From a virus (lineage: Duplodnaviria > Heunggongvirae > Uroviricota > Caudoviricetes), in IMG/VR virus record IMGVR_UViG_3300010275_000216: DNA of 46,051 bases. One strand, given 5' to 3'. Under the pieces are notes generated by a model that saw only the letters and a list, made by a program, of their open reading frames with translations, made no database searches and was not told the origin of the DNA. Each line of letters starts with the position of its first letter. Position 1 is the first letter of the stretch. The position numbers and the translations under genes are program-made. Positions 9,864 through 17,747 of the stretch are shown here, one piece after another.

Positions 9864-10511
9864 TCAGCGACCAATCACCACAACCTGACCACCATCCCCT
9901 TCGTCTGCCGTGCTGATCTCCTGAGAGACCACCCGCGACCCCACGCGCATTTCACCGTACAGAACGGGCAGAACATTGCCCTGGGCAACCATGTTATCCA
10001 GTGAGGAGAAATAGGTGTTCTGTTTGCCGTTATCTGTACTTGCTGCCGTGGGCGTCCTGGCTTTCGGTGCCAGCATCTGCGCCACTCCGCCCAGGATCAT
10101 ACTGGCCCCTGCCGCATACATGCCCGATACAGCCGCGGCACCCAGCCAGCCCACAGGGTTCCACCATGCCACCGCAATCAGCGCCGCCCCCAGCACCACC
10201 TGAAACACACCGCCACTTTTAGCTCCCGCCAGACGCGGCACGATGTGGATCACGGCACCATTTGCCAGCGGCTCATTAAGACGGGCAGACAATTCGGTTT
10301 CACCTGCATCACGCCCGGCAATGCGTACCTGGTACCAGCCGTCGCTCAGTTTCTGACGAAACGCCGGGATCTGCATGGCCAGCGCCCGGATGGCTTCGGA
10401 CCCCGTTTTCACTCGAAGGTCGATGCGGCGGCCAAATCGTTGTAAATCCCCGTAAAGGCAGATGCGTGCCATGCCCGGTGACGCCAGAGGGAGTGTGTGC
10501 GTCGCTGCCAT
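9864..10511 (-). CDS. I: tail tip assembly protein I
   Basis: Lambda I-like sequence; 5' end overlaps 3' end of K as in lambda. Confidence 0.9.
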   Translation of the reverse strand: MAATHTLPLASPGMARICLYGDLQRFGRRIDLRVKTGSEAIRALAMQIPAFRQKLSDGWYQVRIAGRDAGETELSARLNEPLANGAVIHIVPRLAGAKSGGVFQVVLGAALIAVAWWNPVGWLGAAAVSGMYAAGASMILGGVAQMLAPKARTPTAASTDNGKQNTYFSSLDNMVAQGNVLPVLYGEMRVGSRVVSQEISTADEGDGGQVVVIGR

Positions 10512-11865: not shown

Positions 11866-12195
11866 CTATGCCACGACCTGTTCAAAATCTGCCGTTATGG
11901 TTACCCACAGCGCCCCCACGCTTGCCGACCATTTACGACAAACCACCCTGATCGGTTTCCAGTCATAAGGTGGCGTCCACTGAAATGCACGGACGCCACC
12001 GTGCCGTTCCAGAAAGGCTTTTAAAGATGGGTGTTCACATTTACGAACACGTATCGTCACGCTGTAAGTCGACAACTGGTTATTCAGTCCCGCCGCACGA
12101 CGCTGTTCATAACCATCGCCCAGCTTCACTGTCACCACTTTCGGCTCTGATACCACATTCATATCCGGGCGCACTTTCCAGTGAAACGTCTCCAT
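11866..12195 (-). CDS. M: minor tail protein M (109 aa)
   Basis: Same length as lambda M; start overlaps H stop (TAATG). Confidence 0.9.
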   Translation of the reverse strand: METFHWKVRPDMNVVSEPKVVTVKLGDGYEQRRAAGLNNQLSTYSVTIRVRKCEHPSLKAFLERHGGVRAFQWTPPYDWKPIRVVCRKWSASVGALWVTITADFEQVVA

Positions 12196-15100
12196 TACCG
12201 ATATGCTCCACTTAACCGACCACCATCACGGGCCTGCTGTTGCATAAAGTCCGCTGCCGCTTTTTTCCCGAGGTCATAAACCGCCTTCAGGGCAGCCGGA
12301 CCTATCTGCCCGTTCGTGCCATCGTTATTGATCTCGATGTTGTACTGCGGGGAAAACATCGCCATACCTGAACCCCCAATATCCGCCACAACCCCCAGCT
12401 TACCGTCAGCACCACGACGCAATGGCAGAATGGCTTCAGGTCCCGCTTCCCCCATCACACCCGCGCCTTTTGCAAAAGCAAAAAACGTCGGACGGTTAAC
12501 CACCGTGCCACTGTAACGACTCAAATCAGCAGACTGATAAATCCCCCCATTGGCATTCAGGGAAAGGCTGCTGAGATCAAATCCCAGTACACTGCCAATC
12601 CCTTTTATCGATTTCATCATGGTTGCCTGCGCCAGGATTTTCGCCATATCTGACAGCACAGAAGAGGTGAAGGATTTGAAATTGAGTTTGCCGGTAGTGA
12701 CAAAAGTTGCCAGGCCATTTCCCATGTTGCTGAAGGCTGACGAGAACACCTGTTCTGCTGTTTCTGCCGTATTATCTGCATCCACGGTAAAATCCTGAAA
12801 TGCACGCAGGACTCCGTTTTTCCAGTTACCCTGCACAACTTCAAGCTGTTGCCAGTAACGGCGATTCTCATTCAGTTGTCGGTTCAGGCTCTCCGTCAGC
12901 GCCTGCTCGGCCTTTCTGTAGTCATCCGTGTTATATGTCCCTTTCTGCTCACTATCCCGCCTCAACTGCTCCAGCTGTTGCTGGTATTTCTGGCGAAGAC
13001 TCAGTTGTACCTGATATCGCTGTCGCTGCTGATCACCCATACCCACCGTGGCGATATCCAGGTCATGTTGCTGACGCTGAGCGCGCTCTTCTTCAGCCAG
13101 TTGACTGGTCAGCTGAATTGTTTTTTTCTTCAGCTCGTTGAGTGCCGTCTGTTTCTGAAGCTCCTGCTGTTTTACATCCAGCAGCGTCAGTGCCTGAATC
13201 AGTTCCTCTTTACGGGCCAGCACACTCTTTTCATCTGCCGTCAGTTTTTTCCCGTCCAGGTCGCTGATGCGCTGCTGCAGAGCCAGAAGCTGTTTATGCG
13301 CTTCTGTCATCCTTTCCGTGGCAATGCCTGCTGACTGTCTGGCAGCAGCAATCTGTCCTTCCACCTGTGCCTGTTGCTGACTGTACTGCAGCAATAACCG
13401 GGTGGCCTCATCATTACGGGTTTCGCGTGTTTTTTTCTTACCGGATGCCAGGGCTTTCTCGTAACGTTCATTTTCACGTTGTATCGCCGCATCCCTGACA
13501 GCCTGATCGGCGTACTGCATGGCATTAATACGCGCAATTTCACGCTGATGTCGTGCTGCTTCCGTTTCATTCATCCGGTTCAGTGCAGCATTTTCAGCAT
13601 TACGGCGTTTCTGTTGCTCCTGATAATTCCGCTCTGCCTGCTCTTTTGCATCCTGCAAATCCTTCTGGCGTTTTTTCTCCTGAAGATCGTTAAGACGCTG
13701 CTGATCGTATTCAACCTGAGAAGATGATGCCGTCCAGGGGAGTCTTTTCGCCCGCGACACTTTCTCCTGTAAAGCGGCAATCTGTTCATCCAGCGAGTCT
13801 TCACGACCAATATTCATGGCCGCATCCCAGAAACGACTCCACAAATCAGACAGATACTTCAGCGTACTGCCAAGCGCATTGAGGTTATTATCAATATCCG
13901 CAGTACGCCGACCGGTTTCCTCTGCCAGTGCAGACATGGCTATCCGTGCAGCATCACTGGACCGCCCCTGCTCCCCAAGGACGCGTATCTGCTCAAGCTG
14001 AGTGGCAGTAAGAAAATGCAGCTCATTGTCCAGAGCCTTCGCGGCATTTACAGGATCATCCTTCAGCCGCTTAAACTGATTTATGGTATCGCTGACCGAC
14101 TGGCCAACCGATCGCTCCATCTGTGCGGCAGCTCTCGCCACCATACCGATATCGTTTCCACGAAATGCACCACTCCCCACCACCTGAGCCAGCGCACCGG
14201 CTGCAGCATGTTGCGTGATACCATTCCCGGAAATAGCACGACTGAGCGTCCACAGCTGTCCGGCAGTGACTCCGGCATAATGCCCCGTCAGCGACAACTG
14301 GCGGTTAAATTCTTCCCCCTCCTTCTGACCGTCATACCAGGCTTTACCCAGACCATAGACGGCCGCGGCAATACCGCCAATAACCCCGCCTGGCATCATG
14401 CCTTTCGGTGACATCAGTGTGTCTATCCATCCGGCACGGTTAGCCAGCGTTATCCCGGATCCCCTCAGCGCCCCTAAATTGCCGCGGGCCAGTTCACCTA
14501 TCAGAACGCCTATCTCCTGGCGGGCTGCTGCACTTTTCAGACCCAGCGAATGCGTGGCTTTTCCTGCCTGCTCCATTTTGCGGATATACACTTCTGCAGC
14601 ACTGCTTACCCCCAGATGGGCTGCCTTAGCACGAAGCAACTCAGAAGATGAAAGATTCTGGCGGGTTGCCTGCTCTTTAAGCTGACGGATAAACGCCACT
14701 TTCTGTCGGGTAGCCTCTTCCTCAGCCTGTGTAAGAACACGGGTTTTCGCAGTAACCTCAGAAATCAGCGCCAGATAATCCTGCTGACCAATCCCGCCAC
14801 TGTTTCTGGCCTGTCGGATCTGCTGCTGAATACGCTGTAATTCCTGCAGCCCCGCACTGGCCTGTTTCACACTGTCAATCTGACGATAAAACGCAGCAGC
14901 CGCTTTATCCTGAGCCTCCGCCAGAGCCATGGCCTGCGCCTGTTCCTCGCGCATTTTCTGGCTCAGTGCCTCCATGCGCTGGCGGGTTTTCTCCACCTCG
15001 CGGGCCATGCGTTCATGAGCCTGTGCGTTCTTCTCCACCGTCTGCGCATGGACGGATGCGGCTGTTGCAGCCGAAGAAGCTGCCTGCGTTGTCTGCCGGG

Positions 15101-15260
15101 CGGCCTGAGTCTGACGCTCCATAAAACGCTGCATACGGGCAGAAGACCGTTCTGCATCGCTGGCTGCACCATTCAGAAGGTTTTTGATACGGGGAATTTC
15201 ATTTTTAAACTCTGCCGCATCAATCCCCAAATCAATGACCAGGTTGGCTATCTGGTCCAT
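12195..15260 (-). CDS. H: tail tape measure protein H (about 1021 aa)
   Basis: Coiled-coil-rich; C-terminal ...INNDGTNGQIGPAALKAVYD... as in lambda H; ORF-track start 15290 replaced by ATG at 15260 with GGAGG 8 nt upstream. Confidence 0.9.
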   Translation of the reverse strand: MDQIANLVIDLGIDAAEFKNEIPRIKNLLNGAASDAERSSARMQRFMERQTQAARQTTQAASSAATAASVHAQTVEKNAQAHERMAREVEKTRQRMEALSQKMREEQAQAMALAEAQDKAAAAFYRQIDSVKQASAGLQELQRIQQQIRQARNSGGIGQQDYLALISEVTAKTRVLTQAEEEATRQKVAFIRQLKEQATRQNLSSSELLRAKAAHLGVSSAAEVYIRKMEQAGKATHSLGLKSAAARQEIGVLIGELARGNLGALRGSGITLANRAGWIDTLMSPKGMMPGGVIGGIAAAVYGLGKAWYDGQKEGEEFNRQLSLTGHYAGVTAGQLWTLSRAISGNGITQHAAAGALAQVVGSGAFRGNDIGMVARAAAQMERSVGQSVSDTINQFKRLKDDPVNAAKALDNELHFLTATQLEQIRVLGEQGRSSDAARIAMSALAEETGRRTADIDNNLNALGSTLKYLSDLWSRFWDAAMNIGREDSLDEQIAALQEKVSRAKRLPWTASSSQVEYDQQRLNDLQEKKRQKDLQDAKEQAERNYQEQQKRRNAENAALNRMNETEAARHQREIARINAMQYADQAVRDAAIQRENERYEKALASGKKKTRETRNDEATRLLLQYSQQQAQVEGQIAAARQSAGIATERMTEAHKQLLALQQRISDLDGKKLTADEKSVLARKEELIQALTLLDVKQQELQKQTALNELKKKTIQLTSQLAEEERAQRQQHDLDIATVGMGDQQRQRYQVQLSLRQKYQQQLEQLRRDSEQKGTYNTDDYRKAEQALTESLNRQLNENRRYWQQLEVVQGNWKNGVLRAFQDFTVDADNTAETAEQVFSSAFSNMGNGLATFVTTGKLNFKSFTSSVLSDMAKILAQATMMKSIKGIGSVLGFDLSSLSLNANGGIYQSADLSRYSGTVVNRPTFFAFAKGAGVMGEAGPEAILPLRRGADGKLGVVADIGGSGMAMFSPQYNIEINNDGTNGQIGPAALKAVYDLGKKAAADFMQQQARDGGRLSGAYR

Positions 15261-15959
15261 AACGCACACCTCCGGAAATACCTTCCCCAAGATGCATCAG
15301 TTCTTCGTCCGTTCGCTCCGGTATCCCGTTCTCTTCCGGTAAAAGGCTGAAATCAGCCACCGCAGCATCACTGCTGCCGGACACCATTCTCACGATCAAT
15401 GCCTTCAGCGAGGCAAACTGCGCATCCATCCACACATCACTGAAGCTCTGCATCCGGAAATAATCGCCCCACTCACCAAGCTCAGTGGCCGACATTTCCG
15501 ACAGCATCCGCCGCCAGTCTGCCCGCCGGAACTCCCGGGCAAGCCGCATGACAAACTGCATTTCCCGCGTCAGGACTTTTCCGGCGTCAGCGCCTCATGC
15601 TCATCATCCACGGCATTATCAATGGCCCCCATACCGCTCAGCGACAGAACCATCTCCGCCCCCGCACCCAGGGCATCATACGACCATGTTGTAATAACGG
15701 ATGCGCAAAGCGTCTCTACATCCTTAGACTGATCCGCATTCCACAGTGAGCGGGAAACCAGCCAGGCATTGATATCCATCCCCATCCGCAGAAAAGCAAT
15801 CTGTCGTTCAGCCTCCGGCAGTTCTCCCTCCCCGGCATCAAACTTTGCCGTTCGCTGCTGAACAAACGTCAGATATTCAATTCTCTGCAGCCCGGACAGC
15901 TCACTGAGCACCACGGACTGTTTTTCATAATTAAACGTGTCCTGTTTCAGAAACATCAT
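15232..15959 (-). CDS. T: tail assembly chaperone G-T fusion made by programmed -1 ribosomal frameshift
   Basis: T-frame ORF (15232..15561 in track) is in -1 frame relative to G and open across the G stop; slippery heptamer at about 15576-15582. Confidence 0.7.
15570..15959 (-). CDS. G: tail assembly chaperone G
   Basis: MFLK... start as in lambda G; ATGATG preceded by AGGTGGAG; ORF-track start 15998 would overlap V. Confidence 0.85.
   Translation of the reverse strand: MMFLKQDTFNYEKQSVVLSELSGLQRIEYLTFVQQRTAKFDAGEGELPEAERQIAFLRMGMDINAWLVSRSLWNADQSKDVETLCASVITTWSYDALGAGAEMVLSLSGMGAIDNAVDDEHEALTPEKS
15576..15582 (-). other. candidate -1 frameshift slippery site (G GAA AAG in G frame, lambda uses G GGA AAG) near the 3' end of G
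   Basis: Heptamer sits 2 codons before the G stop and the -1 frame is open from here into T. Confidence 0.5.
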
Positions 15960-15978
15960 GTTCTCCACCTGCAAAAAA

Positions 15979-15996
15979 GCCCCGCATAACCGGGGC
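15979..15996 (-). terminator. hairpin GCCCCG-GTTATG-CGGGGC plus T6 between V and G; likely attenuator
   Basis: Strong GC stem followed by TTTTTT on minus strand, then SD and G start. Confidence 0.5.
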
Positions 15997-16016
15997 AAAT
16001 GATGAGTATCGTCCTG

Positions 16017-16760
16017 TTAACCTGCGGCGCTGACAGTCACCGCAGCCACAGCCACAAAATCGCCGTCAGAAGTCATGCCCACAATGCTGACACTGCCCTG
16101 CTTCACGCCTTTCACCGTGGCCACAAGCCCGTTCAGGGTCACCGTGGCAGTCTGTGGATCTGTCGAATGCACACTGATCGCTTTGTCACTGGCTCCGTCA
16201 GGTTTTACTGTAAAGGTCAGCGTGGTGGTTGCTCCCACTTTTACACTGGCAGATGCCGGTGCCACCGTCAGCCCGGTAACGCCCACGGTTTCAGTGCCTT
16301 CTTCTGCCAGATACGGACGCCCCACACCGCTGATTTTCACTGTGCGGGTCATCACGTCTTTTGAGGCAATGGTTTTACCCAGTGAACTCAGCCAGCCACG
16401 GAAAACATCAACAGTACCGTTGGGATATTTGATACGAAACGCGCAGACTTCACCGGAGTCGAACAACTGAACCAGTTTTTTCTGCCCGCTGTCACCCGGA
16501 CGCCAGGCCAGCGTCGCCGAAGTATCACCGACTGATTTCTGCCCCTGGGTTGTCGTTTTCCAGTCTGCATCTTCATCATCGAGATAAGTATCATCTTCTG
16601 CATCAGCGGTCATTTCGCCAGGTTGCAGATCCTTCACCATCGCAAGACGCAGCCAGTCAGTGTCCGACAAAGGGTTCGCAAATGCGTCGCCGTTGCCGGT
16701 ATACATCCAGAACGTCGTCCCCGCACCTTTCGTCTTTGCCAGTGGATTTGGTGTGGCCAT
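16017..16760 (-). CDS. V: major tail protein V with C-terminal Ig-like domain
   Basis: MATPNPLAKTKGAGTT... matches lambda V start; AAGGAGG SD; ORF-track start 16835 is an upstream in-frame extension. Confidence 0.9.
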   Translation of the reverse strand: MATPNPLAKTKGAGTTFWMYTGNGDAFANPLSDTDWLRLAMVKDLQPGEMTADAEDDTYLDDEDADWKTTTQGQKSVGDTSATLAWRPGDSGQKKLVQLFDSGEVCAFRIKYPNGTVDVFRGWLSSLGKTIASKDVMTRTVKISGVGRPYLAEEGTETVGVTGLTVAPASASVKVGATTTLTFTVKPDGASDKAISVHSTDPQTATVTLNGLVATVKGVKQGSVSIVGMTSDGDFVAVAAVTVSAAG

Positions 16761-16770
16761 TGCCACCTCC

Positions 16771-17172
16771 TTAATTCGTGTACGTGATCTGGTACGTGAT
16801 TTCCGCCATCGCCCAGGTGGCCATCTCATTATCACGTTGATAGTTAAAACCGAGTGGGATCAGGGTGTCGATGAGTCCGGAAAGTGCCGGCACATCATTC
16901 AGGGCCGGGAAAATGGTGCTCTCCATCCACATATCCAGCTCTGAATCCGGTGCCTGTGCCCGGATGAAGACAGCAATATGCAGAACAGCCTGCCAGTCAT
17001 CTTCATCCGTCATTTTTCCGGTGTACTGAGCATCACTCAGCCACACCGCCACGGCAGGCAGTTCCTGCGCATCAACAAATGCCGGAAGCCCGTCAAAAAA
17101 CGTGGCGCTGTCTCCACACTGTTCCCGAAGGCGTGCCAGTACGACCTGGCGGATTTGTGTATGTCGGTTCAT
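16771..17172 (-). CDS. U: tail terminator protein U
   Basis: ATFFDG...PAVAV...SELD.WMES motifs as in lambda U; ATG overlaps Z stop (ATGA). Confidence 0.85.
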   Translation of the reverse strand: MNRHTQIRQVVLARLREQCGDSATFFDGLPAFVDAQELPAVAVWLSDAQYTGKMTDEDDWQAVLHIAVFIRAQAPDSELDMWMESTIFPALNDVPALSGLIDTLIPLGFNYQRDNEMATWAMAEITYQITYTN

Positions 17173-17747
17173 CGGGTCAGCCATAACCTCAGTTGTTGTT
17201 TCAGTGCATACCCCAGCTGTTTCGGCATTTCCGCAGCAATGATGCGGTCGCGGGCATCTTCAAATGCCTGTGTCAGCGGTCCGGACAGAGGGATTTTCAC
17301 CACATCAATGGGGTAACGATTTTTGCCATCAATACGCCGCATCACATGCCAGCGACCATTCGCCAGTTGCTGAATAAACGCATCCCGGAAAAGATATTTA
17401 CCCACCTTCAGCACACTGCCACGGTACTGCAGTTTTCCACCACGCCGGGCCAGTCTGACCCGGGCTGTCCCCAGCTTAATGGCGGGCAGATTGCCCCGGT
17501 TAACGCGGATCCTGGCCGTCATTTTTCCTGACGGACTGGCTTTAAACACCCGGACACGCTGACGTACCAGTTTCAGGGGGATCCCTTTCACCTGGTTATC
17601 TCCCGCAACGGTATTCCCGGCAACCTGCCGGGTGGCAACCGAGACCGCTTTCTGTGCCACACGGTTTATCGCCCATGCGCTGGCCTGTGGCACCATACGG
17701 GTATCAAGGCTGTTCAGATTGCGGATGGCATTCTCAAGCCCCTTCAT
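17169..17747 (-). CDS. Z: tail completion protein Z (192 aa)
   Basis: Length and position as lambda Z; MKGLE... N-terminus. Confidence 0.85.
   Translation of the reverse strand: MKGLENAIRNLNSLDTRMVPQASAWAINRVAQKAVSVATRQVAGNTVAGDNQVKGIPLKLVRQRVRVFKASPSGKMTARIRVNRGNLPAIKLGTARVRLARRGGKLQYRGSVLKVGKYLFRDAFIQQLANGRWHVMRRIDGKNRYPIDVVKIPLSGPLTQAFEDARDRIIAAEMPKQLGYALKQQLRLWLTR

Follow-up and report, generated by a model that had tools for sequence, protein, structure and literature searches.

A programmed -1 frameshift of the lambda type between the tail genes G and T, predicted to occur on the heptamer G_GAA_AAG, is the best explanation for the junction of these genes in the window (the whole 46,051-nt stretch of DNA that was analysed, IMG/VR virus record IMGVR_UViG_3300010275_000216), and a probability of roughly 0.85 is attached to this reading. 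In the proposed mechanism, a small share of the ribosomes translating G would slip back by one base at the heptamer and then read the T frame (GTC CTG ACG ...), giving a G-T fusion of 242 aa (...EALTPEK|VLTREMQFVMRLAREF...), and the majority would terminate two codons on, releasing G of 129 aa. G and GT would act together as in lambda, serving as chaperones for the tape measure protein H and bringing in the tail tube protein V. The original prediction had proposed such a G-T frameshift, with G_GAA_AAG in the place of lambda's G_GGA_AAG; gene order, Pfam assignments, the alignment column of the slip lysine and conservation across relatives all agree with it.

The window belongs to an E. coli phage of the mEp460/cdtI-like type. 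In this region, identity to Escherichia phage PhiR55_1 is 100%; a further 16 phage records match at 97.6-99.9%, among them mEp460, cdtI, Tritos and Ayreon, and an 821-bp stretch of the locus is present in 1847 of 5426 complete E. coli genomes. According to the Pfam assignment of each gene, the tail genes follow the order Z-U-V-G-T-H, all on the minus strand (Table 1). Two small ORFs, G and T, therefore separate the major tail tube gene from the tape measure gene, which is the lambda-type arrangement, and both belong to the corresponding lambda families (PF06894 and PF06223). G starts with an ATG at 15959, a second ATG follows at 15956, and identical records name the product 'tail component G' or 'phage tail assembly chaperone G'.

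Two further features of the segment concern expression of the tail genes. The translation units of G, T and H are tightly packed, because the first 29 nt of H, from its ATG at 15260, also form the end of the T frame (15232..15260, minus strand). Additionally, a hairpin resembling an intrinsic terminator (GCCCCG-GTTATG-CGGGGC followed by TTTTTT) is located at 15996..15973 on the minus strand, between V and G and within the late operon. This hairpin is an annotated terminator in mEp460 and Ayreon, its counterpart in N15, annotated as a putative rho-independent terminator, separates genes 13 and 14, and it could reduce the expression of G, T and H relative to V.

Table 1. Coordinates of the tail genes and of the elements around the G-T junction in the window.
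Feature	Coordinates	Strand	Basis
Z	17169-17747	minus	PF06763
U	16771-17184	minus	PF06141
V, major tail tube, directly upstream of G	16017..16760	minus	PF16461 (E = 1.2e-66), plus Big_2
G, tail assembly chaperone, 129 aa	15570..15959	minus	PF06894 Phage_TAC_2 (E = 3.8e-40)
TGA closing the T (-1) frame upstream; 5' limit for shift sites	15595..15597	minus	sequence
Shine-Dalgarno-like GAGG, 10 nt 5' of the heptamer	15593..15596	minus	anti-SD duplex energy
Putative slippery heptamer G_GAA_AAG; P-site GAA (Glu), A-site AAG (Lys)	15576..15582	minus	sequence and conservation
T segment in the -1 frame after the predicted slip	15232..15576	minus	PF06223 Phage_tail_T (E = 5.1e-15)
ATG used as T start	15559..15561	minus	GenBank/PGAP annotation
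H, tape measure, directly downstream of T	12195..15260	minus	PF06791, PF09718, PF24622

On the minus strand, the 3' end of the G frame reads GAG GCG CTG ACG CCG GAA AAG TCC TGA. The AAG codon of the heptamer occupies 15578..15576 and the G stop TGA 15572..15570, with one sense codon (TCC) between them; the earlier placement of the last heptamer codon second before the G stop is thus confirmed once the sequence is read on the minus strand, which that description had left unstated. The further claim that the T frame is open across the G stop was also borne out: T lies in the -1 frame relative to G, is open from 15594 to its stop at 15234..15232 and overlaps G by 25 nt. The predicted GT fusion corresponds to join(15959..15576, 15576..15232) on the minus strand, in which base 15576 would be read twice and the first -1-frame codon after the slip would be GTC at 15576..15574.

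The heptamer taken by itself is not significant, with 13 occurrences of GGAAAAG in the window vs. 7.7 expected; its position, not its mere presence, is what is significant. The structural genes of the window hold 28 in-frame NNA_AAG motifs in 6624 codon positions, and the chance of at least one such motif in the seven codon pairs of the overlap is 0.029, falling to 0.002 for G_GAA_AAG. Compared with the canonical X_XXY_YYZ motif, the A-site half has the Y_YYZ form (A_AAG, in the correct register), whereas the P-site half departs from the rule that the first three bases be identical, reading G_GA here.

Relatives of the locus were gathered from phage records, GTDB genomes and IMG/VR, and a single-protein query of genome contigs returned only close relatives. 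Among loci with more than 50% G identity, GGAAAAG is located at the same distance from the G stop in 185 of 185, and the 15-mers at the junction fall into three forms: CCGGAAAAGTCCTGA (176 loci), CCGGAAAAGCCCTGA (5 loci) and CCGGAAAAGTCATGA (4 loci). In an alignment of G plus T from 12 sequences (765 columns, 54-100% G identity), no invariant run is longer than CCGGAAAAG, which shares its length with one other 9-mer. Extending it by the following 6 nt gives a 15-nt block with 14 invariant positions. Directly before this block lie about 60 alignment columns without a single invariant position, corresponding to the hypervariable acidic C-terminal tail of G; only P-E-K is invariant in the G C-termini. 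Given the codon usage of these genes, the probability of encoding this peptide as CCG GAA AAG is about 0.11 per lineage, and the invariance therefore acts at the nucleotide level. As far as sequence comparison reaches, this conservation settles the question of the predicted frameshift site.

Other shift sites were considered and rejected. Upstream of the overlap the -1 frame is closed by the TGA at 15597..15595, and the G-T overlap among relatives spans 19-46 nt; no other shift site is possible, since certain Salmonella relatives have an overlap of just 19 nt. An alternative slippery site further upstream, which the original prediction had listed as a finding that would count against it, is thereby excluded.

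Several unusual loci were encountered among the relatives. Two GTDB MAGs labelled 'Bacillota bacterium' and 'Proteobacteria bacterium' contain G genes that are 92-94% identical to that of the prophage, and their taxon labels likely reflect misbinning or contamination. Two database proteins from E. coli assemblies (P0025 and P0039) are in-frame G-T fusions produced by deletions, with both PF06894 and PF06223 present and with junctions reading ...SLSG|FVMRLAREF... and ...SYDA|GKVLTREMQ..., respectively; these may come from defective prophages or be assembly artefacts. In a more distant clade represented by two IMG/VR sequences (L107 and L109, approximately 37-40% G identity), G ends in CTG GCA AAA TAG and the sole candidate shift site is G_GCA_AAA, immediately before the stop. 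This suggests a different flavour of recoding in the clade, with P-site tRNA-Lys slippage on A_AAA at the stop codon.

The comparison with lambda extends the pattern beyond close relatives. The -1 frameshift between G and G-T in lambda has reportedly been studied by Levin, Hendrix and Casjens in 1993 and by Xu, Hendrix and Duda in 2004, 2013 and 2014. The window shares with lambda the gene order V-G-T-H, the Pfam families, a downstream -1 ORF without its own start and an A-site AAG, and the slip lysine is located at the homologous column, with the conserved F of F..LARE following 8 codons later. The two systems differ in the heptamer (G_GGA_AAG with a P-site Gly in lambda, G_GAA_AAG with a P-site Glu in the window), in the number of codons from the heptamer to the G stop (five in lambda, one in the window) and in the length of the G-T overlap (64 nt in lambda, 25 nt in the window), and identity between their G proteins is only about 32%. 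When the predicted GT fusions of the window, lambda and N15 are aligned, the slip lysine falls in one common column (TPEK|VLTREMQF in the window, SAGK|VFDGELSF in lambda and TAEK|ALASELKF in N15), and the -1-frame peptide K[VA][LF]xxE[LMI]xF[VA]xxLARE is kept with constant spacing across 15 family members.

The closest parallels to the heptamer itself are found in N15 and Gifsy-2. The N15 record NC_001901 contains a misc_feature at 10027..10033, described as 'slippery sequence for -1 translational frameshift', which reads GGAAAAG. The gene 14/gene 15 pair of N15 has this heptamer in the same register and alignment column as the window, although the preceding codon is GCG (Ala) instead of CCG (Pro), the G stop lies 5 codons past the heptamer, GAGG is absent at 10 nt and N15 G is only about 33% identical to that of the window. 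G_GAA_AAG is also present at the same alignment column in phi80, mEp043 and an N15-like Enterobacter phage. In the Salmonella prophage Gifsy-2, which belongs to the same clade as the window (56% G identity), the junction ACG CCG GAA AAG TCC TGA is the same as that of the window and GAGG is likewise found 10 nt upstream, whereas the flanks have diverged and the overlap is 31 nt rather than 25 nt. The Gifsy-2 record for STM1039/STM1041.1n carries the text 'part of G+G' frameshift hybrid protein; Lambda gpT homolog'.

Across the family, three P-site halves (G_GGA, G_GAA and A_AAA) are found at one alignment column. G_GGA_AAG is present in all 35 distinct relatives of lambda G, and is carried by lambda, the Stx2a phages and PhiR12_5, with CP-1639 carrying A_AAA_AAG; of the 61 distinct relatives of N15 G from IMG/VR, 59 have G_GAA_AAG. 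The two exceptions (L247 and L253) have G_GCA_AAG and A_GAA_AAG at the homologous position. Only the A_AAG half of the putative slip site is, on these alignments, strictly kept across the family.

With respect to the mechanism, A-site tRNA-Lys would re-pair from AAG to AAA, the classic A_AAG slip of E. coli, which would be enabled by the single tRNA-Lys whose modified U34 reads both AAG and AAA. For P-site tRNA-Glu, the move would be from GAA to GGA, with the first and third pairs retained and a G.U in the middle; in lambda, the corresponding re-pairing involves a third-position wobble instead of a middle-position G.U. This geometry of re-pairing is one that we infer. The base before GAA is G in all 185 loci, even though it is a synonymous third position (CCG), and it is also G, as part of GCG, in N15, phi80, mEp043 and a Ravinvirus. 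This pattern suggests that the first G:C pair of tRNA-Glu re-paired on GGA is under selection.

A variant of this explanation, considered somewhat unlikely, omits the P-site re-pairing and ascribes the shift to slippage of the A-site tRNA alone on the hexamer GAA_AAG, in the manner of IS1222 and B. subtilis cdd (CGA_AAG). It is in keeping with the rare N15-clade variants A_GAA_AAG and G_GCA_AAG, which retain only A_AAG. However, the G before GAA, kept at all 185 loci and in 59 of the 61 distinct sequences of the N15 type, is at odds with slippage of a single tRNA, and known hexamer sites need strong downstream stimulators, none of which was found here. Shifting on NNA_AAG hexanucleotides is in itself established (Atkins 2016 review, PMC5009743). 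The invariant G leads us to infer that one-mismatch tandem slippage is favoured over pure single-tRNA slippage.

Known hexanucleotide sites provide a useful comparison for the preferred tandem slip. In IS1222 (G_CGA_AAG) and in B. subtilis cdd (A_CGA_AAG), tRNA-Lys moves from AAG to AAA as proposed here, whereas no canonical re-pairing is available to the P-site codon; in the window, the P-site tRNA would retain two Watson-Crick pairs plus a G.U. The NNA_AAG sites of IS1222 and cdd depend on downstream stimulators, and NNA_AAG motifs are said to have been tested by Licznar and colleagues (EMBO J, 2003). A second parallel concerns the P-site re-pairing, since the GGGGGAA motif of actinophage tail chaperones (the 'fivetwo' class) was explained in PRFect by tRNA-Glu moving from GAA to GGA with a G:U pair (PMC10885494). 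In these actinobacteriophages the motif has Glu as its 3' codon, whereas in the window Glu is the 5' codon, and their hosts and tRNA sets differ from those of the window. The 'twofour' motif class of PRFect fits GGAAAA (PMC10885494).

The novelty of the variant, which the original prediction had implied, could not be upheld. The non-canonical heptamer G_GAA_AAG is already documented and is not new, because it is annotated as slippery in N15, dominates in the N15/phi80 clade, is present in the Gifsy-2 record and falls within the PRFect classes.

The annotation of T bears on whether a frameshift is needed at all. T is a separate 109-aa CDS in every inspected record of the phage group, and G and T are joined in none; in Ayreon, the T CDS begins even further downstream than the ATG at 15561. 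This ATG is probably not a real T start, as judged from the relatives, in which the codon at its position is ATT, CTT or CGG. The next Met after the annotated start is likewise not conserved, with CGG in two relatives. The downstream ORF therefore has the lambda-type layout, lying in the -1 frame, overlapping the 3' end of G and having no conserved start, and because T is without a conserved start of its own, it must be reached by frameshifting if it is to be made. Additionally, the -1-frame Glu codon between the slip site and the annotated ATG varies synonymously (GAA/GAG), which shows that the -1 frame is constrained as coding sequence starting at the slip site. In lambda, T is produced solely as GT, reportedly according to Levin and colleagues in 1993.

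The frameshift would be unnecessary if T were produced separately, as a 109-aa protein initiated at the ATG at 15561 (for instance through termination-reinitiation), and the location of this ATG (15561..15559) only 8 nt past the G stop, along with the uniform annotation of the inspected records, is compatible with such a route. This explanation is nevertheless very unlikely, as the ATG is changed to ATT, CTT or CGG in relatives that retain the heptamer, and conservation of the -1-frame K-V/A-L/F-x-x-E upstream of the ATG extends to lambda and N15, with its codons varying synonymously. The only SD-like bases (GGGA) are 1 nt from the ATG, which is too close for a ribosome-binding site.

Productive transcriptional slippage requires homopolymer runs of about 9 nt. 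The generation of the -1 product by slippage of RNA polymerase on the short A run (AAAA) within the heptamer is thus extremely improbable, four A being far too few, the heptamer being kept in a frame register (AAG as a 0-frame codon) that matters to ribosomes and not to polymerase, and the reviewed examples of productive slippage having long homopolymer runs (Atkins 2016 review, PMC5009743).

Elements that might stimulate the proposed ribosomal frameshift were sought on both sides of the heptamer. Downstream, minimum free energy folds of the RNA were inconsistent among 20 relatives, RNAalifold gave a weak consensus (-12.6 kcal/mol; covariation term, -1.0) and the window's own fold was no better than that of shuffled sequence (z-score -0.31). 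A conserved downstream stimulatory stem-loop or pseudoknot, of the kind known from dnaX, was rejected on the basis of this weak consensus and z-score. Two chance matches were all that an Rfam scan covering 15100..16100 gave at E <= 1, and no phage-encoded tRNA that might modulate the shift was found in the window.

Upstream, the GAGG has the same 10-nt spacing as the Shine-Dalgarno element of dnaX. Its duplex with the anti-SD is weak at -5.6 kcal/mol, as 22% of the positions within G do equally well, and the element is not significant in the window alone. Over 6 diverged lineages, SD-like elements located 6-12 nt 5' of the heptamer are enriched when compared with random positions (P of approximately 5e-4), and in a control with aligned positions, 3% of positions do as well. 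Reading of the N15, phi80 and lambda sequences revealed no SD-like element at the GAGG spacing. These results are suggestive, and the upstream GAGG is put forward purely as a hypothesis for a possible weak stimulator.

The original prediction had described the efficiency of the variant as unknown, which is fair in part. An in vivo efficiency value for G_GAA_AAG was not found in the literature; text searching for GGAAAAG frameshifting gave Peng et al. 2019 (PMC6924986) as the sole relevant match. In the reconstituted E. coli system of that study, AUG GAA AAG was less slippery and gave mainly the 0-frame product, being called unfavourable owing to the second-position mismatch (PMC6924986). The A_AAG tetramer is the best -1 tetramer in E. 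coli, with shifting near background without a stimulator and at 5.6% with the IS3 pseudoknot (Sharma et al. 2014, PMC4066793). For lambda, a G:GT molar ratio of 30:1 is cited in the Atkins 2016 review (PMC5009743).

The efficiency at the natural site is probably low, a few percent or less. It may be well below that of lambda because the sequence slips poorly in vitro, A_AAG is near background and no conserved structure was found. G_GAA_AAG served as a poorly slipping control in vitro, yet two large lambdoid clades have it as their selected natural shift site, and approximately one third of complete E. coli genomes contain one of these clades. It is unlikely, though worth stating, that G_GAA_AAG reaches lambda-like GT levels in vivo through an unrecognised stimulator; alternatively, the tails of these phages may be built with a much lower GT:G ratio than in lambda. 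Candidates for such a stimulator in the clade are the GAGG 10 nt upstream, the invariant CCG E-site codon and the nearby stop. If either proposal is true, the rules for the tolerance of P-site mismatches in bacterial -1 frameshifting would be refined.

Overall, the comparative evidence indicates that the site is a real, conserved and functional lambda-type G-T -1 frameshift site. It adds one more case of a conserved G-T frameshift whose heptamer is flexible in its P-site half, and searches restricted to canonical X_XXY_YYZ motifs would miss the site. The main value of the finding lies in annotation: G and T are now listed separately and the GT fusion is missed, including in RefSeq/PGAP, and in practice the result allows the annotation of a very widespread prophage family to be corrected.
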